A DNA stretch of 64,000 nucleotides from a virus (Duplodnaviria; Heunggongvirae; Uroviricota; Caudoviricetes). The translations under genes and the position numbers were made by a program. A model generated the notes under the pieces. That model saw only the letters and a list, made by a program, of their open reading frames with translations. It had not been told where the DNA came from and ran no database searches. Of this stretch, positions 2,660-57,895 are shown piece by piece (position 1 is the stretch's first letter; each line of letters begins with the position of its first letter). Location: the IMG/VR virus record IMGVR_UViG_3300021963_000024; one strand, 5' to 3'.

Positions 2660-3066
2660 TATTTTACTTTAGTTTTTATTTCTTCGATTTCAATTTCAAT
2701 ATCTTGTAACTTTTCTTTATTTTTTTCTTCTACGGCATTTATAGTATCCTCCATATCAGCTAACAATTGAGCTTTTTCATTTTCACTCAACCAACCATCT
2801 TCACCAATACCCTTTGCTTCTGCAGCTGCTAATCTTTGTGCAATTGTTGCAAGTTTAATTAAGTGGTCATCGTTCTTAACGGATACCTCAATAAGGTCTT
2901 TTATGATTGGAGCAATAACAGTTGCTTCACCAACATTCTTAATTAATTTTCTTAATGATTCAATCAATTCCGAAATGTTTTTCTTTTTGTTTTGTTGGTT
3001 TTCGTATATATCTTTAAATAATGATGATAAGTTTTTACCATCAAATAATTGAAATTCTGTTGCCAT
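2659..3066 (-). CDS. hypothetical coiled-coil protein
   Basis: Coupled ORF (stop/start overlap at 2659 and 3066). Acidic C-terminus with EIEIEIEE. Confidence 0.4.
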   Translation of the reverse strand: MATEFQLFDGKNLSSLFKDIYENQQNKKKNISELIESLRKLIKNVGEATVIAPIIKDLIEVSVKNDDHLIKLATIAQRLAAAEAKGIGEDGWLSENEKAQLLADMEDTINAVEEKNKEKLQDIEIEIEEIKTKVK

Positions 3067-3827
3067 TATATTACTTTGTTCTTTACTATATAATTATAAA
3101 ATTCCTGACTTATTAGATTATACCCCAATGCATTAGGATGTTTACCAGGTTCATTAGTATCTTCAAAACAATCTGTGTTGGTTTCTTCTAAAAAATCTCT
3201 AAATGTTTTTTCACTAAATTTCCAATATAAATTTTTATTAATCAAATCTAAATAATTATCATCTAAATTTAAATTTTCAACATCTACCATTTTATCAAAA
3301 GCATCAGACATGATGTATTTAATTTCATAAAATTCTAATAATTTTTGTAAAAAAATAATATAATTTTGATTAACAATGTTGTAATAATTTTGATTAAAAA
3401 GATTTTCTAAAAAGAATGATTTATATTCTTTTAAAAATGAATCATATACATTATCATTACTTTTATAAGATTCTATAAATTTTTCAGGCTTATTTAATAA
3501 GTGTTTTACAGACCAACTAACCCATTGTTGTCTTGGTAAAAATGCGGCATAATCTCTTAAAGATGAACTCCACATTATAATAACCAAATCATTCTTTTTT
3601 ATTCTGCCTGTAACAACATCATCTATTATGGAGTTGAATATTACCGCATTTGGATTACCACTTTTACCATTATTAATCCAATTAACATTAAGCGATTCCG
3701 CCAATGTTTTTACCCAAGAATGGTTATTTCGGTATATTATTAAATCTTGGTTTTTTAAACTTTTTTCTTTTTTAATATTACAACCTTCACCCTCTGTCCA
3801 ACTATCTCCATATGCATGTAATATCAT
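3066..3827 (-). CDS. SGNH/GDSL-family hydrolase
   Basis: N-terminal block I GDSWTEGEG and C-terminal block V GKHPNALGY. Paralog of 13303-14124. Confidence 0.55.
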   Translation of the reverse strand: MILHAYGDSWTEGEGCNIKKEKSLKNQDLIIYRNNHSWVKTLAESLNVNWINNGKSGNPNAVIFNSIIDDVVTGRIKKNDLVIIMWSSSLRDYAAFLPRQQWVSWSVKHLLNKPEKFIESYKSNDNVYDSFLKEYKSFFLENLFNQNYYNIVNQNYIIFLQKLLEFYEIKYIMSDAFDKMVDVENLNLDDNYLDLINKNLYWKFSEKTFRDFLEETNTDCFEDTNEPGKHPNALGYNLISQEFYNYIVKNKVI

Positions 3828-11175: not shown

Positions 11176-12240
11176 TTAAATTATAGATTTTTTTATTTCT
11201 ATTAAATCATACATATTATGAAATACATATGGATTGGTGGCTACCTTTTTGAACTCATCTAAAAACAAAGAATGTTCTGGATGTAGCACATTACCCACAT
11301 CAATCATTTTAAAGGTTTCATCGGAAAATGTTCCCCAATTAGTTATTCTTCCAAAAAATACTTTTGTTTTATTACCAAATATGAAAGTAATTAATCTTAA
11401 AAATTCAGACATTTCTGTATAATTAGATTGTTGAACTACAAATGAACATTTTACAGTTTGTATACTTTTTATGGTTGAAATAAAATTAAGATTGGATATT
11501 AAATTATCCCAATTACCACCCAATCTTGTTACATTTTCGTATGTAAATTTTGAACCAGCATCAATACTTATTTCACAACTCTTTACATAATCATGTATTT
11601 CCGGCATACTATCCCACATTTCCTTATTCCATAAACTGGCATTTGTATGTAAGTGTATTGATTTTAAATTTGGATATTTTTTAGGATTAAATTTTCTTAA
11701 AAAATTTCTATATGAAACGGAAGCAAACGGGTCTGCAGTGCCTGAACAATATATCATTTCTATATCGTTTGCATATAGAGATTCCATTTCTTCTATTGTT
11801 ATATTTATTTTTTGTATTTTATCACTATTTGCAACAATCATTTCTATTCTACAAGATGGGCATTTATAATTACACGTCCTATCAAAACTCATATGTATGG
11901 TTTTTGGTCCCTGATACATTTTTCCTGTTTCAAAATTGTAATTATTAAAAAAAGATGGGTCTATTTGAGAATAATGTTTTATAGGACCTAAATTATTGGT
12001 TTTTAAATTTATTAATTGAGATAGATACGGACATTGTTTTTTATCACAATAAAGATATGAACCATTCAATACCGATTTTCTAATATCCTTTGCCTCATCA
12101 CTATTCCACACATCTTTCATAGGTTGATTCTTTGGTAAGTGTTTTTTTAACCAACTTGCACAGCATAAAAAATAAGATTCATCATGTATTTCCAATATTT
12201 CAAATGGAACTTTGCATATATAATCTTTTAAATCAATCAT
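11176..12240 (-). CDS. radical SAM enzyme with N-terminal Cys-rich domain
   Basis: CxxxCxxC cluster FDRTCNYKCPSC and a glycine-rich CSGTADPF. N-terminal C-x15-CC ... C-x4-CPYLSQ cluster. Paralog of 39091-40290. Confidence 0.6.
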   Translation of the reverse strand: MIDLKDYICKVPFEILEIHDESYFLCCASWLKKHLPKNQPMKDVWNSDEAKDIRKSVLNGSYLYCDKKQCPYLSQLINLKTNNLGPIKHYSQIDPSFFNNYNFETGKMYQGPKTIHMSFDRTCNYKCPSCRIEMIVANSDKIQKINITIEEMESLYANDIEMIYCSGTADPFASVSYRNFLRKFNPKKYPNLKSIHLHTNASLWNKEMWDSMPEIHDYVKSCEISIDAGSKFTYENVTRLGGNWDNLISNLNFISTIKSIQTVKCSFVVQQSNYTEMSEFLRLITFIFGNKTKVFFGRITNWGTFSDETFKMIDVGNVLHPEHSLFLDEFKKVATNPYVFHNMYDLIEIKKSII

Positions 12241-12764
12241 TATATTAAATTGTAATTATAATCATCTTTATTTCCTTTTCTCAATCTATTTTTATCATTT
12301 AAATCATAGATATCTTCATAATAAGTTATTGGTATATTTGTTTTTTGCGATATATAGTTTAATTCATCATTCCACAACTTTATGTTATAAAATGCTTCAT
12401 CATAGTTTGGTGTTTTTTCCCAAAGATATTGTGATATAGATGAAAAATTCGATGTTTTCATTTTATAGTTTAGATAAGACCAACTTTCCGCACATGCCTT
12501 TAAATCTCTTCTACTTAATAAAATTGTTTTTTCAAATTTTGATATCAAACTTATTAACCAGTCTACTCTATTGGATTCTTTTATAGAATTTGGTTTATGA
12601 AATATAATTGTTTTTATAACTACATTATGAATATTATTTTGAGTATTTATTTTATTAAATGGATTAAATGGTTCAAAATTATAAACCAATTTATTATCAA
12701 TTGCTAATTTTTTACCTAATTCGGTGGAACCTGTTCTTGGTAAGGAAATTATTAAAATATTCAT
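12240..12764 (-). CDS. sulfotransferase (NodH-like PAPS-binding motif)
   Basis: N-terminal ISLPRTGSTELGKKL matches the 5'-PSB loop of NodH/Stf-type sulfotransferases. 174 aa. Confidence 0.4.
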   Translation of the reverse strand: MNILIISLPRTGSTELGKKLAIDNKLVYNFEPFNPFNKINTQNNIHNVVIKTIIFHKPNSIKESNRVDWLISLISKFEKTILLSRRDLKACAESWSYLNYKMKTSNFSSISQYLWEKTPNYDEAFYNIKLWNDELNYISQKTNIPITYYEDIYDLNDKNRLRKGNKDDYNYNLI

Positions 12765-13306
12765 ATCAATTTTTTTGATTTATCTAATTGATAATATTTA
12801 AAATCTGTATTTGTCATCCATATATTTAATGCATATCTAATACCTGAATAGACTGGCATTACACCGTGATATGTTTTACTACCATCAAATGAAATAGATT
12901 CACCAATATTTAGTATGTATTTATTTCCATTTTTTATATCATCCATTTTTTCGGATAATACGAAGCTACCATCACTAAATCCGGCCGATAAAACTATAAC
13001 TGTTGTAAATTGTGATGTAGTATCTAAATGCAAATCCAACCATCTATTATCATAATACTTTGTCAAACTAATATTTACATCCTTTATATTAAATTTATTC
13101 AAATCAAACCATAATTTAAATTCATTTTTATTATATTTTTCTTTGATTTTTTGAATTATATTTGATTTAAATTCATCATCATAAATTCTTTTACAATCCC
13201 ATACTTCATTTGGATTATATGAAAATTGTATGCCATTATTTTCTGCAAATTCTATTATAGATTGGCATTCTTTTTTATCAAACAAATTGTTTATATAATA
13301 ATTCAT
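12761..13306 (-). CDS. 2OG-Fe(II) oxygenase
   Basis: HxD (HLDTT), distal His (TYHGV) and Arg (RYALNIW) at canonical spacing. Confidence 0.55.
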   Translation of the reverse strand: MNYYINNLFDKKECQSIIEFAENNGIQFSYNPNEVWDCKRIYDDEFKSNIIQKIKEKYNKNEFKLWFDLNKFNIKDVNISLTKYYDNRWLDLHLDTTSQFTTVIVLSAGFSDGSFVLSEKMDDIKNGNKYILNIGESISFDGSKTYHGVMPVYSGIRYALNIWMTNTDFKYYQLDKSKKLI

Positions 13307-14124
13307 ATAATAATATTTTCGATATTGTTCGTCTTATATGTTAATATGTTTTTATTTAATATAAAATCATATAGTTCATTCGCAATTAATTTATATCCAT
13401 TTTTGTTAGGATGTTTACCCTCTGTTAAATCTTTCCAATGTTGTCCATCTCCCCACACATCCTTTCTATTTGTATTTATTAATAAATCTTTTAAAGTTTT
13501 ATTTGAAATACCCCAATAATGGTTTTTATCAATTAGATTAGTTTTATCTATGTTTTTTGAAATATCATCTTTTATCATTAAATCAAATGCATCACAAAAA
13601 ATATATCTTATACCAATTTTTTTAAACATCCATTGTAAATATAAAATATAATTTTGGTTTACGATTTGATAATATTCATCCGTAAATAAATTTGCTAAAA
13701 AATATTCTTGATATTCTTTTTTTATTCTATCGTATTTTGTAGTTATATTTGTATTTTTAAATACTTTTTTATACAAATATTCTTTTCGTTTATATCTCTC
13801 ACCCCAATAGTGCCAGGAATTATTATCAGGAAAAAATGGAACAGAATCTCTTAAAGATGAACTCCACATTATAACAACCAAATCATCTTTTTTAATTAAA
13901 TCGGTATCTACTGAATTACAAACTGCATCAAATATACTTTTATTAGAACAACCACCTATTCCAAAATTATCAAAAGGAATATTTAAATGTTTTGATAACA
14001 ATGTAGGCCATGCGTATTTATGACGTATTTTTGTTCTTTCTTCTAAATCTTCGGTTTTTAATTCTTCCTGCCAATCGGAACCAACTCCTTCGGTCCAACT
14101 ATCACCGAATGTAAATAATTTCAT
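13303..14124 (-). CDS. SGNH/GDSL-family hydrolase
   Basis: FGDSWTEGVG block I and GKHPNKNGY block V. Paralog of 3066-3827. Confidence 0.55.
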   Translation of the reverse strand: MKLFTFGDSWTEGVGSDWQEELKTEDLEERTKIRHKYAWPTLLSKHLNIPFDNFGIGGCSNKSIFDAVCNSVDTDLIKKDDLVVIMWSSSLRDSVPFFPDNNSWHYWGERYKRKEYLYKKVFKNTNITTKYDRIKKEYQEYFLANLFTDEYYQIVNQNYILYLQWMFKKIGIRYIFCDAFDLMIKDDISKNIDKTNLIDKNHYWGISNKTLKDLLINTNRKDVWGDGQHWKDLTEGKHPNKNGYKLIANELYDFILNKNILTYKTNNIENIII

Positions 14125-14858
14125 TAAATAATAGATTTAACTCTTTTGTATGAACCATCAATATATGTATCGACAAATTTTATTAATTCATCGGTTTTCA
14201 ATATTGCAGAATAATCTAATTGCGTTTTATTTTTATGAATTAACTTAAAATCTATATTAAGTTTTTTTGATATATAATCTTCAAATTCATATAATCTATC
14301 AAAATGAAATTCTTTTACTTTTACTTTTGATGATGATATCCATTGATATTGCGATACGAATGACATAATGTGTATTGCGTATCTTTTTTTAAATTCATCG
14401 GATATATTATAATATTGAATTACACCCGCCGTTTCTAATAATTTTATTAGGAGATTTACTCTAGTTTCATAAGATATATACGCATTTTTGAATTCGTATA
14501 TGTTGTCTTTAAAAAAAGAAATTATAAAATTATTATCTAAATTTTTAAGGATATTTGAACCCTCTTCGGATATACTTTGAATTATTTCTTGTATAAAAAA
14601 TTTCCAAGCTGATATAAATCTATCCGTAGAATTTCTTATTATACATACAAATTCAAAATCCATACCAAGCGAATCAATTAAATAATTTATATCCGAATGA
14701 ATATGTTTTTCTGGATTTTTTACTCCAAATTTAATAGAATTTTCCCATAAAATATTCGGATATGTTAAATCCAACCCGTATTCAATACAAGTATCTTCTA
14801 CCGACCAAGATGCATTTTTTGGTATTGGTATAAAAACAATACAATTATTTATAACCAT
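14124..14858 (-). CDS. hypothetical protein, possible carbohydrate-sulfotransferase-like
   Basis: IPIPKNASWSV weakly resembles the Sulfotransfer_2 5'-PSB (IPKTGST). Weak evidence. Confidence 0.3.
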   Translation of the reverse strand: MVINNCIVFIPIPKNASWSVEDTCIEYGLDLTYPNILWENSIKFGVKNPEKHIHSDINYLIDSLGMDFEFVCIIRNSTDRFISAWKFFIQEIIQSISEEGSNILKNLDNNFIISFFKDNIYEFKNAYISYETRVNLLIKLLETAGVIQYYNISDEFKKRYAIHIMSFVSQYQWISSSKVKVKEFHFDRLYEFEDYISKKLNIDFKLIHKNKTQLDYSAILKTDELIKFVDTYIDGSYKRVKSII

Positions 14859-15001
14859 TTTAATAAAATTTATGAACCAGTTACATCCGTATAAATTAAG
14901 TTTGCGACCTGCTGCATAATAGTTGCAATGGCCTGATTTGTGGTGTTATTGGTTAATACTATTTCCGAAGAAATTATTTTATCTTTCATTTTTAATTATT
15001 T

Positions 15002-16537
15002 TTAAAGTTTTGAAGGAGGTTGGCCACCACAGAAACCACATGCACTACAACACCAAACTGCACACATCCAAGCACCACACCAACCATAACATGTACCGTT
15101 GTGTTGTACAAAAGTAAGTCCCAATGTTTCATCTGCTAATGGTAAAAACAAATCATTTGTTTCAACATTTATATCATATATTTTTTTATTAACATATACG
15201 ATTTCCAAATTTGTTATTTTTGATTTTACTAAAGTATTATTCACATAATCAAAAAATACAATTGAATCATTTATTCTAAATCTATTTGTAAATACAAATG
15301 TAGTTTGTAATGTATCGTATTCCTCTACCAACATAGAACTAGCCGGCAAATCTTCATAAACTATACCATTTTCCAATGTTACCCTAATCATTAGGGATTC
15401 TTTAGTTTGTGTTCCTAAATCAATTACGGTTGTATTTGATTGAGTAAATGATTCTAAGTCAGAGCTGAAACTTCCTGAATTCAAATCTGGCATATATAAT
15501 ACTTCTCCTGTTTCGGATGTTTCATTTAGTGGAACCCAAGGAAGAGTTATCGTTTTTAATGAATCATTAACTAAAATTTGATTTGGATATTTAAAACTTC
15601 CATCTGAATATAATATTGGTGTATCATCATCCAAAATATAAGTTGTACCAAATTTACTTATTAGGGATTTACTCATCCATAATACTCTGGAATTTTGTTC
15701 CATTTTACCATTTGTATCATATTCGGTTACCCACGCATCATTTTCAACACCGGCCGTCATAATATACGAACCCAAATGTAATATACTTAATGTTCCACCA
15801 TATATTATATCCAAACTTCTTATTACGCCTATTTTATTATCAATAAAATTATCCGGGTGTGTGTGGTATTCTTCTATATATTCCAATTCTGTTAATGAAT
15901 CTTTTAAAGATTGTAAAGATTCCAATGATTGTATTTTGTAAAACTTTGGATAAGTTAAATAATTTGTATTTGGATATCTTGTTTTTACAATATAATTCGG
16001 TGCATCGCCGGCTGTAGTATGTAAATTTACTAATTGGTCTATATTAAGATTTGTATCAGTTTCTGAATGATAATACACGTTTGGTGCAAATGTTTCATTT
16101 GAAATTACTCTATGAAAATTTACCTTATCTTTTGCATAATTTTCATCTACTAATGCAGTAGTATCATATGATGTTCTCAGTATTAATACATCATCCGCAT
16201 CTTCTATATATGGAACTGTTATTGAATTTTTAGGAACTTCATAGTGGTTGAATGTGCCTGATAATTCAACCATTATTTCACTCATTTTATCTTTTAAAGA
16301 TATATTTTCTGTTGTTGTATCAAATACATTTTCTTTTTCCGTATTTATAAAATTACCATCCGTATATATAAAATGCAATTTTGTAATAGAATTATCTATT
16401 AAAAATTGCTTAAATGTATTCCAATCCAATTGTGGAACAATTTTGTTATGAACATCCACATTTGTGTTTGTTTCTATTATTCTTAAATTACCGGATGCAT
16501 CCTTTAAAAAATCCGTTCCAATTATTAATGCTTTCAT
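15002..16537 (-). CDS. hypothetical 511-aa protein with C-terminal 8-Cys tail
   Basis: Large ORF whose C-terminal 30 aa are CYGWCGAWMCAVWCCSACGFCGGQPPSKL. No other motif recognised. Confidence 0.45.
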   Translation of the reverse strand: MKALIIGTDFLKDASGNLRIIETNTNVDVHNKIVPQLDWNTFKQFLIDNSITKLHFIYTDGNFINTEKENVFDTTTENISLKDKMSEIMVELSGTFNHYEVPKNSITVPYIEDADDVLILRTSYDTTALVDENYAKDKVNFHRVISNETFAPNVYYHSETDTNLNIDQLVNLHTTAGDAPNYIVKTRYPNTNYLTYPKFYKIQSLESLQSLKDSLTELEYIEEYHTHPDNFIDNKIGVIRSLDIIYGGTLSILHLGSYIMTAGVENDAWVTEYDTNGKMEQNSRVLWMSKSLISKFGTTYILDDDTPILYSDGSFKYPNQILVNDSLKTITLPWVPLNETSETGEVLYMPDLNSGSFSSDLESFTQSNTTVIDLGTQTKESLMIRVTLENGIVYEDLPASSMLVEEYDTLQTTFVFTNRFRINDSIVFFDYVNNTLVKSKITNLEIVYVNKKIYDINVETNDLFLPLADETLGLTFVQHNGTCYGWCGAWMCAVWCCSACGFCGGQPPSKL

Positions 16538-16574
16538 TTTTTTATTGTCTTATTTATATAAATATATTGGTTTT

Positions 16575-17216
16575 TTAAATTAAACTACTAATTTTTTTCG
16601 CAGATTCAAATCCTACATTACCCGCTATAACAATTCTATTTTTTGTTGAATTGGGTGAATTATTTGGTGAATGTTCTAAATTAGATTTCATAATAACCAC
16701 TTCACCTTCTTCTGGTAAATAATAATATCTTTTTTTGTTTTTACCTTCTACTATTAAAGTGCCTTCCGTATCTGATAGATTATTTGGCATTTGGGCATAA
16801 TATACAAAAGTATATTCCGGATAAAAAGAATTTATAATTTTTTGCAAATCTATGTGGTTATGTAATTTAACATCACCACCATATTTAAAATTATTTTGTT
16901 TTGGTTTTCCAGTTTTTACAACATTTATCCAAGCATTAATATTAACTTTATTAAAATTCAGTTCATCTTTTATACCTAACTCAACACATTCATTCAAACA
17001 AATTTTAATAATTTCTTCAATATAATTCGATGGTATCATTTCTTTTTTAAAATCAAAACTACCCCAATCGTTTAAATATGGATAATTATCTTGGGGAACA
17101 TAATTGGCGGTAGATAAAAATGATATACAATTTCCTAAAACATCAGATTGTAACTTTGTATTTTCTAATTTTACTATATACAAATCTACACCATCTTCAA
17201 ACGTAATTTTTTTCAT
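16575..17216 (-). CDS. 2OG-Fe(II) oxygenase-like protein
   Basis: HID (LHNHIDLQ), distal His (NLEHSP) and Arg (NRIVIAGNV). The C-terminus resembles that of 17506-18159. Confidence 0.4.
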   Translation of the reverse strand: MKKITFEDGVDLYIVKLENTKLQSDVLGNCISFLSTANYVPQDNYPYLNDWGSFDFKKEMIPSNYIEEIIKICLNECVELGIKDELNFNKVNINAWINVVKTGKPKQNNFKYGGDVKLHNHIDLQKIINSFYPEYTFVYYAQMPNNLSDTEGTLIVEGKNKKRYYYLPEEGEVVIMKSNLEHSPNNSPNSTKNRIVIAGNVGFESAKKISSLI

Positions 17217-17218
17217 AA

Positions 17219-17506
17219 TTAAATAATTGTTTTAGTTTTAACTTTTAGAGTTTTTATATATTTTTCTTCAACACTATTCCACTTTGATTTTGGACATGTT
17301 CCGGCCTGGTCTGTAAATATTTTCTTTTCTAAAGGACATCCACATCCACCACATATTGCAGACCATTTTTTATTGTGTATAATTTCTTTTCTAAACTCAC
17401 ACTTCATACAAATGCTCATACGTTCTTCTGCTAAACTCTTTTGTGTTGAATTAGGGTTGAATGATGTAATCCAAGCATTAATAATTTCTTTAGGATTAAA
17501 ACTCAT
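17219..17506 (-). CDS. zinc-ribbon protein
   Basis: CMKC...CGGCGC...C; 95 aa. Confidence 0.4.
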   Translation of the reverse strand: MSFNPKEIINAWITSFNPNSTQKSLAEERMSICMKCEFRKEIIHNKKWSAICGGCGCPLEKKIFTDQAGTCPKSKWNSVEEKYIKTLKVKTKTII

Positions 17507-18159
17507 TATATTATACTTTTTTTATTATCTATTAAACTGACATTACCCGCAACTGATATCCGTTCTACATCTTTTGTAAAAAATGGACTAACATAATGCA
17601 TTAAATACGCTGGAAATATAAACATTTCCCCTGTAATCGGTGAATGATTTATCTGTGTTATCGGTGACATATAACTATTTACCGTATTTGAAAATTCTTG
17701 TGCATTTGAATCAAATTTTTTTACATTTTGTCCATATAAAAATGATATACTTCCATTTTGAAATCCTCTTTTAATAGTTTTTTCATTTTTAATTTCATCC
17801 GGCATATCCACATATATTACAAAGGATATATCATATGCATGAAAATGTGGAGAATTAAAATCTCTACTTTTTTGAAAATTAATCCATAAATCTTCAATAT
17901 TAATTCCAAATCGAAATGGCTTTAAATTTCTAATTTTGGCAATTTCTTTTATATAATTTTCTATATAAACGGAAATTTTATTTTTAAAATAACTTACATT
18001 TTCAAAACTATATTTGTAAGATGTATCAAATGTTATGGAATCGAGCTTATTATCTATTAAAATTTCATTTCTCCCAACGGATAGAAGTTCTTTACATAAA
18101 TCCAAATCAATATTGGTTTTCATTAATTCGGGCCCGAAATTATATTTTGTAAATTCCAT
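17506..18159 (-). CDS. 2OG-Fe(II)/PhyH-like oxygenase (tentative)
   Basis: PHFHAYD, LMHYVSP and ERISVAGNV at cupin-like spacing. Weaker than the neighbouring oxygenases. Confidence 0.35.
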   Translation of the reverse strand: MEFTKYNFGPELMKTNIDLDLCKELLSVGRNEILIDNKLDSITFDTSYKYSFENVSYFKNKISVYIENYIKEIAKIRNLKPFRFGINIEDLWINFQKSRDFNSPHFHAYDISFVIYVDMPDEIKNEKTIKRGFQNGSISFLYGQNVKKFDSNAQEFSNTVNSYMSPITQINHSPITGEMFIFPAYLMHYVSPFFTKDVERISVAGNVSLIDNKKSII

Positions 18160-18722
18160 TATATCAATTCTGTTTTATTATTTTCTATTTTTTTTAATTT
18201 CAACCAACTAACTAATGAATATCTTTTTCCTGATTCTACGGGTTTTACTCTATGTAATATTGCCGATGGAAATATAAACATATTACCTTTTCCTGGTTTT
18301 AATGTTATAGAATTTTCTAACATTAATTGAAAATCACCAGAAGTATACTCATCATTTAATTGTATCACAACTGTATATATTCTATCTTTAAAGATATTAT
18401 CATTTGAATCAGAATGCCAATCAAAGTAATCGCCTACATTATATTCTGTAAATTGAAAACTTTCAACATATAATTCATAACCTCTTTGTTTCGGTGTTCT
18501 TTTTAATATTTCATTTGTAATTTTTGTATTGATGTTATTTAAATCACCCACAAATGCAACTTTTGATTTTCTTGTCTTTTTCTGACTTTCTTTTTTATAT
18601 GTATTGTATACTTCCGCATCTTTTAAATCCAAATCAGAAAGACATTTATCTATAATCCATTCACATTCTTCATTTGATAGAAACTTTGGAATTACCGATA
18701 TACCTTTATCTTCTAATATCAT
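18159..18722 (-). CDS. 2OG-Fe(II) oxygenase (prolyl-hydroxylase-like)
   Basis: HxD (WHSDSND), distal His (AILHRVKPV) and Arg (KRYSLVSW). Confidence 0.6.
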   Translation of the reverse strand: MILEDKGISVIPKFLSNEECEWIIDKCLSDLDLKDAEVYNTYKKESQKKTRKSKVAFVGDLNNINTKITNEILKRTPKQRGYELYVESFQFTEYNVGDYFDWHSDSNDNIFKDRIYTVVIQLNDEYTSGDFQLMLENSITLKPGKGNMFIFPSAILHRVKPVESGKRYSLVSWLKLKKIENNKTELI

Positions 18723-18740
18723 AGTTTAGTTTTATGAACA

Positions 18741-18769
18741 AATATACGAATAATTTTTGAATTTACCAA
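18741..18769 (-). promoter_or_regulatory. sigma70-like promoter TTGGTA-N17-TATATT upstream of the tailoring operon
   Basis: Minus-strand read TTGGTAAATTCAAAAATTATTCGTATATT. The -10 lies about 20 nt upstream of the ATG at 18722. Member of a 4-copy family. Confidence 0.5.
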
Positions 18770-18771
18770 AA

Positions 18772-18791
18772 GGGGTGGGGGTTGGGGGAGG
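18772..18791 (+). other. G-tract (GGGGTGGGGGTTGGGGGAGG), possible G4-forming element
   Basis: Three G4-5 runs plus GG/AGG in an otherwise AT-rich intergenic region. Confidence 0.3.
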
Positions 18792-18834
18792 TCGTTTTTT
18801 AAAAGAAAATTTTTGGTATCTCTATTGATAGACC

Positions 18835-19413
18835 CTATATTATTTTAATTAAACTCTTATCCTTATTCAATAAAGCATTATAATACTTCATATCACTTTG
18901 GGTATATCTAATCAATTTATCCATCAATTCAGGATATAAATCAACGCACTTATCCCAAACTTCTTTTTTTGATTTATAATTTGGTTCAGTATGAAAATCG
19001 TATTCATTTTGATTGTATGGTATGGTTTTCAATATTTCTTCCATAAATCCGGAAAGATTGGATAAATCCACTATTCTCAATTCACTATTATACCAAATAT
19101 AATATATTTTTTCACAAAAATGTGGATGATAGTGTGTTCCACCAAATTGTATATCGGAAAATTTTAATAATATCTTTAGAATTTTATCCGAATCATCCCA
19201 ACACTCCATCACTTCCGTTTGTAAAGCAGATTCTAAATGTGAAAGTGGATTTCGTATTATAATCACTTCTAATCCCAGTTTGTTTAATTTTTCAAACGGA
19301 ACTCTATAATTTATATTAATGTGTGAATTAAGTAATAATACGGTTTTAGAAAAATATCGAGAACCACATTTCGCGGGAACTCCCCATTTTCCGTTATATA
19401 CATCTATAACCAT
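18835..19413 (-). CDS. hypothetical protein
   Basis: Minus-strand ORF. No motif recognised. Confidence 0.4.
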   Translation of the reverse strand: MVIDVYNGKWGVPAKCGSRYFSKTVLLLNSHININYRVPFEKLNKLGLEVIIIRNPLSHLESALQTEVMECWDDSDKILKILLKFSDIQFGGTHYHPHFCEKIYYIWYNSELRIVDLSNLSGFMEEILKTIPYNQNEYDFHTEPNYKSKKEVWDKCVDLYPELMDKLIRYTQSDMKYYNALLNKDKSLIKII

Positions 19414-37434: not shown

Positions 37435-37683
37435 CTATTTGTTTTTATCATTTATAAATTTTTCAAATCCTAATTGCTCGTTTTCTTTTGCAATCTTTTT
37501 TACACTATCATAATCAAATTCCGTATTAGATATTGCAGAACTTATACTTGCAAATCTTTTGGTGTGATAACTACTTAGTGGCGATGTGTGTTGTTTTAAG
37601 TGTAATGCTTTTGCATCCAAGTATTCAAACAATTCATCATCTGTCATTTGTTTTAATTCTTCATCCGTTTTATTAAACTCCAT
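37435..37683 (-). CDS. hypothetical protein
   Basis: 82 aa ORF. Confidence 0.35.
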   Translation of the reverse strand: MEFNKTDEELKQMTDDELFEYLDAKALHLKQHTSPLSSYHTKRFASISSAISNTEFDYDSVKKIAKENEQLGFEKFINDKNK

Positions 37684-39089
37684 TATATTAAAGTTTGTTT
37701 TGCTAATGAATTTATTATATTTTTACAATCATCTTTATATGCTTCTTTGGAATAATCTAAAAATAATTGCTGATTGTGTTTAACAATATCTTTTACATTA
37801 AGTAAAAATTCATCCTTTTCTTCTTTTGATTTTTTAGTAAACTTTTCTATTTGTTCAAAAATCATTTCCAATCTTTTAAAATCATCGGTTTCTATATCAT
37901 AACTTTCATCAATGTATGGATGAAAGGTTTTATATCCTAAACTTTGTAAGTATTGTAAAGATTTAGCAGGACCGGCTAATATGAATGGTTGTGCGTGTCC
38001 TATTGGTTTCCAAATCTTTTCACTTAGATATCCTGTTGGAAATTCTACATATACATCTTCATCATCTCTAACTTGAAAAAATATAGATTCCGAAACTAAA
38101 CTGATATAAGAATTTAAATATATTGATTTATTTTCAAAACCATATCCTGCTATTTTAGTCAAATCCGATACATCTAAATTTTTAGAAACCGTTTTAACTA
38201 TTTCTGCCAATTCTAAATTTTCATCATGTTTTAAAAATTCAGTAATTACATCTTCGTGATAAAACTTTTTATCCCAAGATGTATTATTGTAAAATAGTTT
38301 TCCAAGTTTATGTAATTTTGAAAGTATAAGTAATCTATGCAACTTCCAATGTCTACATAAAAATAAAAAATCCTTTTTTTGATTTCCTATACTATTTTCA
38401 AATTCTTCAAATGTTAAAACACTATTTGCAGTATGTTCGGTTTGTCCAAATTGTGGTTCAAATGAATTATCACCCCAAAATTTAAAATCAGGATTATTAA
38501 TTATGTTATTAAACTCCTGTGATTTAGATAGTTGTGCTAAATTAAAATCAAATACATTGTAATTAACACCCATCTTTTTAAGATTTGATTGTAGTTTAAA
38601 ATCCTGAAATATCAGGTAAACCTTTTCATCGGGTATTTCGTTTTCTCTTGTAAAATCAACTAACTTTTTGAAATTCGATTTTGTAATTCCTAATCCACCA
38701 TCAATGATATAGTTAATTAATAAATTACCATTACCACTTTTGATTTCATTCAATGCTACTGATGAAATTTGTTTTAAACATAATTCATTAAAGGTAGGAT
38801 GGTTTCCAAAAAAACTTTCAATACTTCCAAACGGTTCTACCGGATAAAACCATTTTGTGTTTTTGTGATTATTTATAATTTCATATACTGATTTTTTATC
38901 AACATAGTTATTCCAAAAATTGGAATTATATAAATGCCAACCGATATTCCATCTATTTTGAAAATGCTCTCCTGAGAATGCATAATTAAAATCGGAAGCT
39001 TGATATATTGTATTCAAAAATTTTGGATGCAGACAATTTGGCATTTCACCATTGTAAGTCATAATATCATATCCAAATAATACTTTCAT
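37683..39089 (-). CDS. hypothetical 468-aa protein (partner of second radical SAM gene)
   Basis: Large ORF coupled (39089/39091) to the radical SAM paralog. No motif recognised. Confidence 0.45.
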   Translation of the reverse strand: MKVLFGYDIMTYNGEMPNCLHPKFLNTIYQASDFNYAFSGEHFQNRWNIGWHLYNSNFWNNYVDKKSVYEIINNHKNTKWFYPVEPFGSIESFFGNHPTFNELCLKQISSVALNEIKSGNGNLLINYIIDGGLGITKSNFKKLVDFTRENEIPDEKVYLIFQDFKLQSNLKKMGVNYNVFDFNLAQLSKSQEFNNIINNPDFKFWGDNSFEPQFGQTEHTANSVLTFEEFENSIGNQKKDFLFLCRHWKLHRLLILSKLHKLGKLFYNNTSWDKKFYHEDVITEFLKHDENLELAEIVKTVSKNLDVSDLTKIAGYGFENKSIYLNSYISLVSESIFFQVRDDEDVYVEFPTGYLSEKIWKPIGHAQPFILAGPAKSLQYLQSLGYKTFHPYIDESYDIETDDFKRLEMIFEQIEKFTKKSKEEKDEFLLNVKDIVKHNQQLFLDYSKEAYKDDCKNIINSLAKQTLI

Positions 39090-39090
39090 T

Positions 39091-40290
39091 TTAAATTAAA
39101 CTTTTTTGTATTTTAAATGGTTTTGTTTTTTCTTTTTCATCCTCAATAATCAAATCATTAAAATTATTATCAACATGTGGTAGTTGATGTATTCTTTTTA
39201 ACTCTTTCATAAAATCGGAAAACAATGGATGGTCTTTTTCAAATACACATAAATCTTTTAATTCTTCGGGTGTAAATGTTCCCCACTGCACCAATCTTCT
39301 ATAATTTATAACCAATACTTTTTTATGTTCGAACAAAGGTTTTAATAACTCCCAAAACATATACATTTCTTTGTAGTTATTTTTACTAACAGTCATAGAA
39401 AATACAACTCTTTCTACACTTTCTAATTTTGAAAGAAATAGTAAATTTTGTATAAGCGTTTCCCAAACTCCACCCAATCTAACTTTGGTTTCATATGTTA
39501 ATTTAGTTGCAGCATCTATACTTATTTCGATACACTTAACATATTGATGTATATTTGGCATGGTATCCCACATCTGCTTATTTAATAAAGAGCCATTCGT
39601 AACCAATTGTATTTCTCTTAACTTTGGATATTTTTTAGGGTCAAAATTTTGTAAATATTCTCTAAATATTTTTGAATAAAACGGGTCACCAGAACCTGTT
39701 ATTATAATTTTTCTTAAATTCCAAGAATATTGTTCATCTATTTTATCAATAATGATTTTTTTTCTTTTATATTCTATCGAATCAACATCATCATTTGGTA
39801 TTAAATGTGTTCTGCAAGATGGGCATTTGTAATTACAACTTCTATCAAATCCAAAAAGTATTTCCTCAGGTGTAATATCAAAGTTTTCAATATCTTCTAT
39901 CGAGCTGATATTTAATTCTTTCATCAGTTCTTCTTTCAATTGAAAGTTATATGGAATAACCTCTTTACCTTCAATTTGACTCTTACTTAATATTTGAGAT
40001 AAACACGGACAAACAACTTTATCACAAGACTCATATGAACCATCTAAAATATCCCTTCTAACTTTTTTGGCTTGTGGTGAAGTCCAATTTCTTAATAAAT
40101 CTTCATCTTCATCAACTGCAAACCAAGGATTTGGTTCACCTTCTTTATTAACTCTTAAATTAGTTTTATTCCAAAAAGGACAACAAACGAAATTACCAAG
40201 CGGTTGAACATCTATATATTTAAATGGAGAATTGCAGGCATACTTATTAAGTATTTCTTTTTCAAAATTGTTTTCCTTATTATCTATCAT
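39091..40290 (-). CDS. radical SAM enzyme with N-terminal Cys-rich domain (paralog 2)
   Basis: GFDRSCNYKCPSCR (CxxxCxxC) and ITGSGDPFYSK. N-terminal C-x14-CC...C-x4-CPCLSQ. Paralog of 11176-12240. Confidence 0.6.
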   Translation of the reverse strand: MIDNKENNFEKEILNKYACNSPFKYIDVQPLGNFVCCPFWNKTNLRVNKEGEPNPWFAVDEDEDLLRNWTSPQAKKVRRDILDGSYESCDKVVCPCLSQILSKSQIEGKEVIPYNFQLKEELMKELNISSIEDIENFDITPEEILFGFDRSCNYKCPSCRTHLIPNDDVDSIEYKRKKIIIDKIDEQYSWNLRKIIITGSGDPFYSKIFREYLQNFDPKKYPKLREIQLVTNGSLLNKQMWDTMPNIHQYVKCIEISIDAATKLTYETKVRLGGVWETLIQNLLFLSKLESVERVVFSMTVSKNNYKEMYMFWELLKPLFEHKKVLVINYRRLVQWGTFTPEELKDLCVFEKDHPLFSDFMKELKRIHQLPHVDNNFNDLIIEDEKEKTKPFKIQKSLI

Positions 40291-55412: not shown

Positions 55413-55658
55413 TTAAATTAATTTATTTGTTATTCGTAAAATTGTTTCTTCATCTTCTTTGGATAGTTTCCAACTATTGCCAATTAACTTTTTGACTTGT
55501 TCATCAAATTCCGAACTCTTATTATCAGGATCAGCTAAAGTTCCTTGAATTTGTTTAGGAACATAACCCGCTTCATAAAGTTCATCCGCTAATTCTTGCT
55601 TTTCATATCCCATTAAACCATATATGATATCATCAATATCAATGTCTATACTTGCCAT
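55413..55658 (-). CDS. hypothetical acidic protein
   Basis: 81 aa ORF. Confidence 0.35.
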   Translation of the reverse strand: MASIDIDIDDIIYGLMGYEKQELADELYEAGYVPKQIQGTLADPDNKSSEFDEQVKKLIGNSWKLSKEDEETILRITNKLI

Positions 55659-56578: not shown

Positions 56579-57895
56579 CTACCAAACGATAGTTTCTTCA
56601 TCACCTTGTTCATCTTTCACTTCATTGAAAAGTGCTTCATCTGTTGATTTAACATATTTTTGAACAAGTTGTTTAATAAATACTCTTTCACTATCCAACC
56701 CACCATCATTACTGAAATATGGTAAGATAGCGATTTCAGCCGCTTCCATTAAGGTAAACCCATCATAGATAAGACCGGCAGCTTCCACATTCACACGTGT
56801 CGAAATGATTGTTGAGATTTTACTCATATCAGTTTTGATTAACTGACGAGTTGTATCAGCAATCTCGGATAAAGCTTGTAATGCATATTCATCAGCTTCA
56901 GGGAATTTGAATTTCAACAATGCCAATTCACTATCCTTATCCAACAAATCCATTTCAATAGTTACGAAACGGTCCATAATCGCACGGTCCATAATACGTG
57001 TAGACGTATATTCGTTACCAATGTTTGCCGTTGCGATGAATGTAACACCATTTGCTACTTTAACAATTGGTGAACCTTCAGCCTCGTCCAATCGTAAATA
57101 ACGCTGTCCGGCATCCAACACAGTCATTAAGATATTCCAAGCTTCTGGGTGAGCACGGCTAATCTCGTCCAATAGGATGATTGCGTTTGGAGTGCTGATT
57201 GCTTTTACGAAAGCGGATTCAGCAAAGAATGTTCCGTTTTCTTTATTAAAGTGTGTGTTACCGATAAGAGTAGCACGTGGGTCTTGCGTTGCACCTAAGT
57301 TGAAATAAAAGTCAGGACGCTTCAATGAACGAACTAACGATTGAGATGCCAAAGTTTTACCACAACCAGTAGGACCAGTCATCATAATATTCTTACCACG
57401 AACTGCTGAACGAAGAAGATACTTCCACTTAAGCGGTTCAATGAATAATCCTTCAGGTTTCAATTCACCACCTTTCTCGTGGATAAATTGTTTCAAATGT
57501 TCGTGTGTTTCAAATGCTTCACTTACACTATCACATGCAGCATCTTCAATAACATTTGCTAATTTTTTAAATTCATCCATCTCAACAAGTTTGTAAGAAA
57601 GATTACCACTTTTGTTTACAAAACCACGGATTGCTTTATTCTCCGTATGTGCTTGTTTCATTTTTTGTTTCGAAATACCATCGACTTTTGTATCAATGAT
57701 ATCACTCTTTGTGGTCATAAGTGCGAAACTTCTACCCACTTGCACAATTTTGTAACATTCATTTGTGAAACCTACATTGGTATCCACTGTCTTTTGAGTT
57801 GTTTTGCGTCCACTCACACGCTTTGCCGTTTTACGAGCCATAGTTTTCGATTTAGTAGTTTTTGTAACATTTTTCTTACGCATAGAAATATCCAT
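56579..57895 (-). CDS. cobS: AAA+ ATPase, MoxR/CbbQ/CobS-like
   Basis: Walker A GPTGCGKT, Walker B ILLDEISRA, and IATANIGNEY...MDRF typical of AAA_5. N-terminal basic extension. Confidence 0.7.
   Translation of the reverse strand: MDISMRKKNVTKTTKSKTMARKTAKRVSGRKTTQKTVDTNVGFTNECYKIVQVGRSFALMTTKSDIIDTKVDGISKQKMKQAHTENKAIRGFVNKSGNLSYKLVEMDEFKKLANVIEDAACDSVSEAFETHEHLKQFIHEKGGELKPEGLFIEPLKWKYLLRSAVRGKNIMMTGPTGCGKTLASQSLVRSLKRPDFYFNLGATQDPRATLIGNTHFNKENGTFFAESAFVKAISTPNAIILLDEISRAHPEAWNILMTVLDAGQRYLRLDEAEGSPIVKVANGVTFIATANIGNEYTSTRIMDRAIMDRFVTIEMDLLDKDSELALLKFKFPEADEYALQALSEIADTTRQLIKTDMSKISTIISTRVNVEAAGLIYDGFTLMEAAEIAILPYFSNDGGLDSERVFIKQLVQKYVKSTDEALFNEVKDEQGDEETIVW

Follow-up and report, generated by a model that had tools for sequence, protein, structure and literature searches.

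What does a short, cysteine-packed tail do at the end of a large viral protein? The question is raised by a 64,000-nucleotide stretch of DNA, here called the window, from IMG/VR virus record IMGVR_UViG_3300021963_000024 (Caudoviricetes), in which a minus-strand open reading frame (ORF) of 511 aa ends in such a tail. A preliminary description of the locus placed the ORF at 15002..16537 within a tailoring operon and likened its tail to modified peptides, knottins and metallothioneins. The ORF itself is confirmed, and our analysis partly supports the earlier interpretation of the tail and sharpens it: the evidence points to the tail being the C-terminal cargo of a three-part viral protein, in which an ATP-grasp ligase is followed by a degenerate Hint domain of the cleavage type and then by a Cys-rich peptide.

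The translated ORF ends in ...TLGLTFVQHN-GTCYGWCGAWMCAVWCCSACGFCGGQPPSKL. This is exactly the tail sequence that had been quoted, but it contains 7 Cys (residues 483, 487, 492, 496, 497, 500 and 503) spanning 21 residues, not eight within 24; the 480 residues of the body before it contain none. Within the proteome predicted for the window (116 proteins), 1.04% of residues are Cys, so that the probability of ≥7 Cys in 21 residues is 1.3e-9 per position, or ~2.5e-5 expected over the whole window, and the next densest stretch in this proteome has 4 Cys. The tail-coding DNA is 47% GC, compared with 29% GC for the gene. A word-index search returned 161 homologues, all named 'hypothetical', and the tail was in frame and kept in all 119 of these that have a parsable C-terminal region. 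We can thus exclude chance or artefact as the origin of the Cys tail. A handful of family members lack a Cys stretch altogether.

Conservation within the tail follows the pattern of a discrete module, with fixed Cys positions and free spacer residues. In an alignment of 95 sequences, C483, C487, C492, C500 and C503 are invariant and C497 is >90% conserved. The preliminary description had expected the body to vary around conserved Cys positions; the Cys positions are indeed fixed, but it is the spacers that vary, while conservation of the body is high. The 60 closest homologues share 66.7% pairwise identity in the ATP-grasp part, 62.8% in the Hint part and 25.7% at the non-Cys tail positions. 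Across the 119 parsed homologues, the commonest and ancestral pattern has six Cys (C-x3-C-x4-C-x4-C-x2-C-x2-C), with 6 Cys in 94 sequences, 7 in 16, 8 in 5 and 12 in 1. The odd count of the query clade (16 sequences) comes from Cys496, a lineage-specific seventh Cys. A second large clade has the spacing C-x-C-x4-C-x3-C-x4-C-x2-C, and its 8-Cys forms always gain both extra Cys jointly (CxCC ... WCC), which suggests, at the level of sequence covariation, that the two form a Cys-Cys pair. Examples of these 8-Cys forms are homologues P0087, P0099, P0101, P0107 and P0138, and loci L019, L039, L041 and L047.

The module is aromatic as well as Cys-rich, with a composition of 28% C, 11% G, 9.6% Y, 9.0% W and 5.4% F (W is 0.8% of the body), and it is nearly devoid of Lys, Glu, Leu and Ile. 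Its length across the family ranges from 20 to 137 aa, with >20 Cys at 137 aa in distant members, and in the query type it ends in a semi-conserved K-[L/I/V]-COOH or similar. Ten Cys modules taken on their own, some of them long ones of distant homologues, had no Pfam match, and we found no separately encoded copies of the module in the window or in 84 related loci, where all other matches were out-of-frame noise. Several identities of the tail could be ruled out. A metallothionein, one of the earlier suggestions, does not fit the high Trp, Tyr and Phe content or the spacing and length that vary between clades. A tail-anchor transmembrane segment is excluded by the polar tails of the second clade (CWCPWNYCGHWCNSWYCPSC) and of distant members, and a peroxisomal targeting signal of the PTS1 type, as the -SKL ending might imply, is excluded by the phage-like gene organisation and the PHROG matches of the window.

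With the 95-sequence alignment as input, AlphaFold2 modelled residues 1-480 confidently (mean predicted local distance difference test score, pLDDT, of 87; predicted template modelling score of 0.81), and the body consists of two domains, an ATP-grasp fold followed by a Hint/intein fold. Searches of Pfam, PHROGs and NCBIfam with the 511-aa protein gave no match, and the BFVD fold search gave no full-length analogue, the Hint part alone matching viral proteins with TMq ≤0.29. Our literature searches found no paper describing an ATP-grasp-Hint-Cys-rich fusion or Hint-released phage peptides, and the three-part design has most likely not been described before.

The N-terminal domain has the ATP-grasp fold, although no ATP-grasp model in Pfam or NCBIfam matches the protein. 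Its invariant residues include G7, D9, E22-x-N24, R121, D125, D131, K185 and R240. Of these, E22-x-N24, which lies in a beta-strand ('IIETNTN'), together with K185, R121 and R240, look like an ATP-grasp Mg/ATP-binding motif in a comparison by sequence only, and an ATP-grasp active site is probably present. The branch of the fold that was matched, that of the carboxylate-amine ligases, includes enzymes acting on peptide or protein C-termini, namely GspS/YgiC, glutathione synthetase, TTLL, RimK and LysX.

The second domain, residues ~300-480, has the Hint beta-fold of about 140 residues, and among PDB entries the family profile matches the M. jannaschii KlbA intein best at the sequence level (E 0.012). 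Blocks F and G of inteins can be read in the sequence (IYDINVETNDLFL...FVQHN), with a block F/G-like motif IYDINVE..D.F...FVQHN kept. The other intein signatures are missing. Position 300, where the block-A nucleophile would stand as Cys, Ser or Thr, is Tyr in 90 of the 95 aligned sequences and Val in the remaining 5; the region of block B reads VTLENGxxYEDLPxS, with EDLPxS in the place of the Thr-x-x-His motif and no conserved His; and the residue at +1 after the Asn480 equivalent is Gly, Pro, Ala, Gln, Tyr or others, with the first Cys at +2 to +5. Because Cys1, block B and a +1 nucleophile are lacking, the Hint-like domain, judged by its sequence, is not an intein. None of the Pfam Hint models, including PF07591, detects this first Hint of the 511-aa protein.

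What the domain does retain is the terminal His-Asn of block G, as H479 and N480 are invariant in 95/95 aligned sequences. In every full-length homologue of the word-index set the Cys stretch starts 1-5 residues past this pair. We therefore have a concrete route for peptide release, since the tail follows directly on the invariant His-Asn. The strongest computational argument that the His-Asn acts on the tail is that the two co-vary: in an alignment of 189 family members over the end of the first Hint, all 184 members that bear a cargo have the Asn and 182 of them the His, while His is lost in 3 of the 5 members without cargo, in which just a few Cys-free residues follow.

The endings of the relatives bear on the same question. 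Beyond the Cys module we find three types of ending: the short tail of the query type, a Peptidase_S74 extension, and one or more canonical Hint domains. The second type, a ~73-aa extension beginning SD(I/V)xxK(E/K)N directly after the Cys module, occurs in 32/269 sequences. All 9 extensions tested match PF13884 from model position 1 (best E 9.5e-5, below the gathering score), with S1, D2, K6 and N8 invariant and a Ser-x4-Lys dyad, so that these homologues carry a Peptidase_S74 domain, an intramolecular chaperone of phage fibres that cleaves itself, which is absent from the window protein itself. A PDB profile search with the extension gave no match, and PF13884 alone in Pfam recognised it. 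In the third type, 29/269 sequences have one to three canonical Hint domains with Cys1 after the Cys module (Intein_splicing E 1e-12); PF07591 matches the extra Hints of homologues P0091 and P0105, and the extra Hints usually end in ...VHNK-COOH. Since an S74 or Hint domain directly follows the Cys module in these relatives, the module is flanked by self-processing junctions on both sides. A distant subfamily (P0235, P0251, P0259, P0280, P0283 and others) has no Cys module; its members carry one to three canonical Hints 0-4 residues past the first His-Asn and also end in ...VHNK-COOH. These proteins are Hints in tandem, with next to nothing separating or following them.

We propose that the tail may be released by self-cleavage as a ~31-aa Cys/aromatic peptide, a reading drawn from sequence patterns to which we give slightly less than an even chance. 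The degenerate Hint would perform only the last step of splicing, C-terminal cleavage: Asn480 would cyclise to a succinimide, breaking the Asn480-Gly481 bond and freeing the 31-aa peptide GTCYGW...PPSKL. Asn cyclisation is known to proceed without the N-terminal steps in Cys1-mutant inteins, which are used for C-terminal cleavage, and it tolerates small residues or Pro at +1, Asn-Pro bonds being cleaved in this way too. Variants with an S74 or Hint extension would also cut at the far end, excising a ~25-30-aa six-Cys peptide; where the extra Hint is canonical, the peptide would carry a thioester at its C-terminus on the way, as happens with the Hint domain BIL2 discussed below. The six Cys would most likely end as three cross-links, either disulfides or thioethers. 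More speculatively, the released or tethered peptide could be the substrate of the 2-oxoglutarate (2OG) oxygenases, twitch-type radical SAM enzyme and sulfotransferase-like enzymes encoded nearby, and of the Trp halogenase found at some loci, while the fused ATP-grasp domain might activate the ...K-[L/I/V]-COOH end, so that the peptide could be ligated or closed head to tail. The complete pathway would be a new, virus-encoded class of peptide natural product, with an enzyme-fused precursor, a Hint in the role of the leader peptidase, tailoring enzymes (the GDSL hydrolase among them) recruited through a C-terminal tag, and a cross-linked, possibly head-to-tail-ligated ~30-aa product freed at host lysis; as a whole we regard it as doubtful.

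Several observations weigh against release of the tail as a modified peptide. All steps beyond the domain assignment are inferred from sequence. The canonical helpers of Asn cyclisation are only partly kept, as D462 (98%) occupies the block-F His position and the block-F Asp455 is conserved in just 60% of sequences. A nucleophile is missing at +1, and the His-Asn might simply serve the structure. The tail has no confident fold in the AlphaFold2 model (pLDDT 29-53). The radical SAM gene is present in just 27/84 loci, many of which are truncated, and no family of precursors or maturases of RiPPs (peptides made by the ribosome and modified after translation) in Pfam or NCBIfam/TIGRFAM was matched above threshold. 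Peptidase_S74 domains are otherwise known from trimeric virion fibres, where they act on the segment just upstream, a link that speaks more for a structural module still attached to the protein than for a peptide set free. Additionally, a fibre-like gene encoding 1400-1660 aa directly follows the cluster at two related loci, L001 (14210-19195) and L003 (15961-20187).

The last two points feed the strongest competing explanation, in which the tail is never released and forms a small knob, held by disulfides or a metal, through which the protein oligomerises or is covalently cross-linked, for instance in a virion or an assembly. Six-Cys domains of this kind are found in minicollagens, and a cystine knot stands at the end of collagen III. 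The dominance of even Cys numbers (6, 8 and 12), the joint gain of two Cys in the 8-Cys forms of the second clade, the S74 chaperones, a module type of trimeric fibres, and the fibre-like giant gene next to the cluster would all suit such a knob. However, the body has the fold of an enzyme, not of a fibre, and keeps invariant polar residues. A structural role hardly accounts for an invariant His-Asn on a Hint otherwise without catalytic motifs, with the His being lost where the tail is missing. The extreme variability of the module in length and sequence would be unusual for a cofactor or assembly site, the Cys count of the query clade is odd, and the protein has no signal peptide, the bacterial cytoplasm being reducing. 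We consider an attached knob rather unlikely. The variability of the module bears equally on the idea that the tail is an Fe-S or Zn cofactor site serving the ATP-grasp enzyme itself. The CxxCxxC and Cx3C spacings do resemble Fe-S and Zn motifs and the spacing is conserved within the close clade, but it differs between the two clades, distant members reach 137 aa with >20 Cys and some members have no Cys stretch, and the aromatic-rich, charge-free spacers without a Pfam match are atypical, making a cofactor site improbable.

The released peptide could also be a conjugation tag, with its C-terminus joined by the fused ATP-grasp domain to an amine of some other molecule, either after release or through the thioester of an extra Hint; in a variant of this idea, the ATP-grasp domain would join the [L/I][I/L]-COOH ends of neighbouring proteins to the new N-terminus of the peptide. 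Here the ATP-grasp relatives that act on C-termini and the semi-conserved K-[L/I/V] ending would find a role, BIL2 offers a precedent for Hint-driven isopeptide conjugation to Lys, and the cluster enzymes, of unrelated folds, share a C-terminal tag while the family protein, the one large member of the run to lack the tag, lies at its middle. The argument is drawn from context, nothing ties the tag to the ATP-grasp domain, and the C-terminal Lys could simply reflect AT-rich codon usage, so that we hold conjugation to be quite unlikely.

Closest in operation to Hint-driven release of the tail are the autoprocessing modules of the BIL/Hint type, for example BIL2 of the Tetrahymena BUBL polyubiquitin-like locus (PDB 6tmm) and the C. 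thermocellum BIL (2lwy), and the pretoxin-HINT (PT-HINT) release modules, although the 511-aa protein is a member of neither. In the PT-HINT domains of polymorphic toxins, the C-terminal module is thought to be released by autoproteolysis. The likeness is that the Hint lies directly upstream of a hypervariable C-terminal module; in contrast to these toxins, the 511-aa protein has no N-terminal secretion or trafficking domain, no toxin-fold cargo and no immunity gene, and its context is viral. BIL2 dispenses a ubiquitin-like domain onto Lys (PMC8616854). Unlike BIL2, the Hint domain here is without Cys/Ser1 (Tyr300) and the block-B TxxH, so that at most the C-terminal cleavage step would be open to it, and it is fused to an ATP-grasp enzyme, with a Cys-rich peptide and not a ubiquitin fold as the excised unit.

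Known peptide systems offer further parallels. In borosins such as omphalotin (OphMA), the enzyme that modifies the core peptide carries that peptide as its own C-terminus, and the 511-aa protein likewise pairs a large enzyme with a short C-terminal peptide as the presumed product; it differs in having an ATP-grasp fold in place of an N-methyltransferase, and a built-in Hint rather than a separate prolyl oligopeptidase for release. SCIFF/ranthipeptide and sactipeptide precursors have six Cys in about 45 residues and are matured by radical SAM-SPASM enzymes. Six conserved Cys in about 21 residues and twitch/SPASM-type radical SAM genes in the cluster recall these systems, whereas the 511-aa length without a leader peptide, a radical SAM gene that is neither adjacent nor present at all loci, and a paired Cys gain that points to Cys-Cys and not Cys-Xaa links set the protein apart. 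SCIFF and its maturase models (NCBIfam/TIGRFAM) gave no match above threshold, and there is no lanthipeptide synthetase at the locus. The protein is likewise not a short RiPP precursor with leader and core, given its 511 aa and the lack of a Pfam or NCBIfam match for either the protein or the isolated tail, and the earlier likening of the tail to a RiPP or knottin finds no support from known families in Pfam or NCBIfam. With about 20-30 aa, six Cys and no hydrophobic core the module does resemble knottins, cyclotides and minicollagen domains in general, but its spacing matches no Pfam Cys-knot family and it would be made in the bacterial cytoplasm without a signal peptide.

The gene context, finally, resembles the cyanophage tandem-dioxygenase clusters of the Syn9 gp49-gp54 type, which are predicted to modify peptides and for which no substrate has been identified (Iyer et al. 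2010, PMC2938197). Both are arrays of 2OG-Fe(II) oxygenases with genes for a sulfotransferase, for the supply of 3′-phosphoadenosine-5′-phosphosulfate and for a Trp halogenase in marine phages, but no substrate like the ATP-grasp-Hint-Cys protein is named for the Syn9-type clusters (PMC2938197). If the Hint-like domain does release the tail, the protein would name a substrate for such marine-phage clusters of oxygenases, sulfotransferases, halogenases and radical SAM enzymes, an open question since they were described (PMC2938197). The Hint would then be a natural intein relic whose sole work is that of a built-in protease, cutting off a small Cys-rich peptide at the C-terminus, itself the first such peptide made as the tail of an ATP-grasp enzyme, and hundreds of hypervariable sequences from uncultured viruses would be added to ribosomal peptide space.

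Features of the ATP-grasp/Hint-like/Cys-rich-tail gene and of its neighbourhood in the window.
Feature	Position	Strand	Basis or remark
Whole gene, ATP-grasp/Hint-like/Cys-rich-tail fusion protein, 511 aa	15002..16537	-	ORF listing
ATP-grasp-fold ligase domain (acid-amine ligase/glutathione-synthetase-like), residues ~1-290	15668..16537	-	
Hint/intein-fold domain, residues 300-480	15098..15640	-	
His479-Asn480, terminal His-Asn of the Hint-like domain, proposed Asn-cyclisation cleavage site	15098..15103	-	
Tail GTCYGWCGAWMCAVWCCSACGFCGGQPPSKL, residues 481-511	15005..15097	-	stop codon 15002-15004
Core Cys module, residues 483-503, C-x3-C-x4-C-x3-CC-x2-C-x2-C	15029..15091	-	
Conserved 39-aa ORF MKDKIISSEIVLTNNTTNQAIATIMQQVANLIYTDVTGS	14870..14989	-	12 nt past the tail stop codon
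Downstream block: 244-aa protein, GDSL-like hydrolase, 181-aa 2OG-oxygenase-like, 174-aa sulfotransferase-like, 354-aa twitch-type radical SAM	11176..14858	-	
Radical SAM gene with CX3CX2C motif	11176..12240	-	four genes downstream of the 511-aa ORF
213-aa 2OG-Fe(II)-oxygenase-like neighbour, ends ...SLI	16575..17216	-	weak PF13640 match
95-aa partner, six invariant Cys (C33, C36, C52, C55, C57, C71)	17219..17506	-	alignment; weak DUF6171 match
Upstream block: two 2OG-Fe(II) oxygenases (217 aa, 187 aa) and 192-aa protein	17506..19413	-	

The surroundings of the gene bear out the tailoring operon of the preliminary description: 2OG-Fe(II) oxygenase-like genes flank the ORF, and the cluster of oxygenase, radical SAM and sulfotransferase-like genes is conserved. 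A radical SAM gene had been placed next to the tail gene; it is indeed part of the cluster, but is not directly adjacent. We counted conservation of the neighbourhood over the 84 related loci. The most tightly linked neighbour is the 95-aa six-Cys protein, found at 73/84 loci and directly upstream in 57/84; a fold search with it gave no informative match. Homologues of the 213-aa 2OG-like protein and of the 187-aa 2OG oxygenase are each present at 69 loci, followed by the 181-aa 2OG-like protein (56), the GDSL-like hydrolase (54), the 244-aa protein (52) and the 174-aa sulfotransferase-like protein (49). The twitch-type radical SAM protein scores 56.7 bits against NF033640, for which the cut-off is 170, and the radical SAM proteins of the clusters are of the twitch/SPASM type that is typical of peptide or protein maturases. 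Related loci additionally carry an adenosine 5′-phosphosulfate kinase, SPASM-type radical SAM proteins, glycosyltransferases and a Trp halogenase. The conserved 39-aa ORF has a ~65% identical counterpart in L001 and a homologue at the +1 position in 15 related loci; at the distant L003 locus a 46-aa ORF stands in its place. The 1400-1660-aa fibre-like protein of L001 and L003 is presumably a tail fibre, and there is no such gene within the window. In L003 the fibre-like protein has a Peptidase_S74 end.

The enzymes around the gene share an ending. Ten of the 11 consecutive genes from 11176 to 19413 encode proteins that end in x-[S/T/K/N]-[L/I]-I-COOH, including all proteins of the downstream and upstream blocks, with the 511-aa protein as the sole exception. 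The carriers are of unrelated folds, namely 2OG oxygenases, the twitch radical SAM protein, sulfotransferase-like proteins, the GDSL hydrolase and the 95-aa Cys protein. Across the 84 loci the tag is kept in 82-98% of the homologues of cluster enzymes (63/70 for the 213-aa 2OG-like protein) and in 0% of adjacent gene families outside the cluster, and in L003 the Trp halogenase, GDSL hydrolase, radical SAM protein and 2OG oxygenases are all tagged. The ending could be ruled out as a by-product of overlapping stop and start codons, as it persists with 37-112-nt gaps between genes and with Leu/Ile interchange, and equally coupled genes outside the cluster lack it. Because the tag is independent of overlap and interchanges Leu with Ile, it looks like a signal at the protein level, such as a shared docking or targeting tag, and its sequence is similar to C-terminal ligands of the class-I PDZ type. 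Should it serve for docking, it would represent a new way to organise a biosynthetic pathway. A wider form of the tag, x-[S/T/K/N]-[L/I]-[I/L]-COOH, is also found at 37683-40290, 55413-55658 and 3066-3827 of the window, and in L001 and L003. A second twitch/SPASM-type radical SAM gene (399 aa) and a 468-aa neighbour lie at 37683-40290 on the minus strand, 20 kb from the cluster, and end in ...SLI and ...TLI.

An exhaustive hidden Markov model search yielded 447 cluster representatives of the family at 50% identity, 216 of them below E 1e-30, and 307 relatives lie on IMG/VR contigs of up to 334 kb. The family was found only in uncultured aquatic viral contigs: tblastn of the 511-aa protein against 50,697 deposited phage records gave no match, and a scan of 185,579 bacterial and archaeal species genomes of GTDB gave no relative. 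At the DNA level, a megablast of 20 kb against the same phage records gave no match either, and the window has no tRNA genes. Its 116 short predicted ORFs all lie on the minus strand, the stop and start codons of many of them overlap, and PHROG matches include a DNA ligase, a carbamoyltransferase and 2OG oxygenases. A CobS-like AAA protein (56579-57895) is 57% identical to that of Microcystis phage Mel-JY01 and is also near that of a 484-kb uncultured phage. The window thus seems to come from a large uncultured phage, and a number of related contigs have been placed in 'GVMAG' giant-virus bins.

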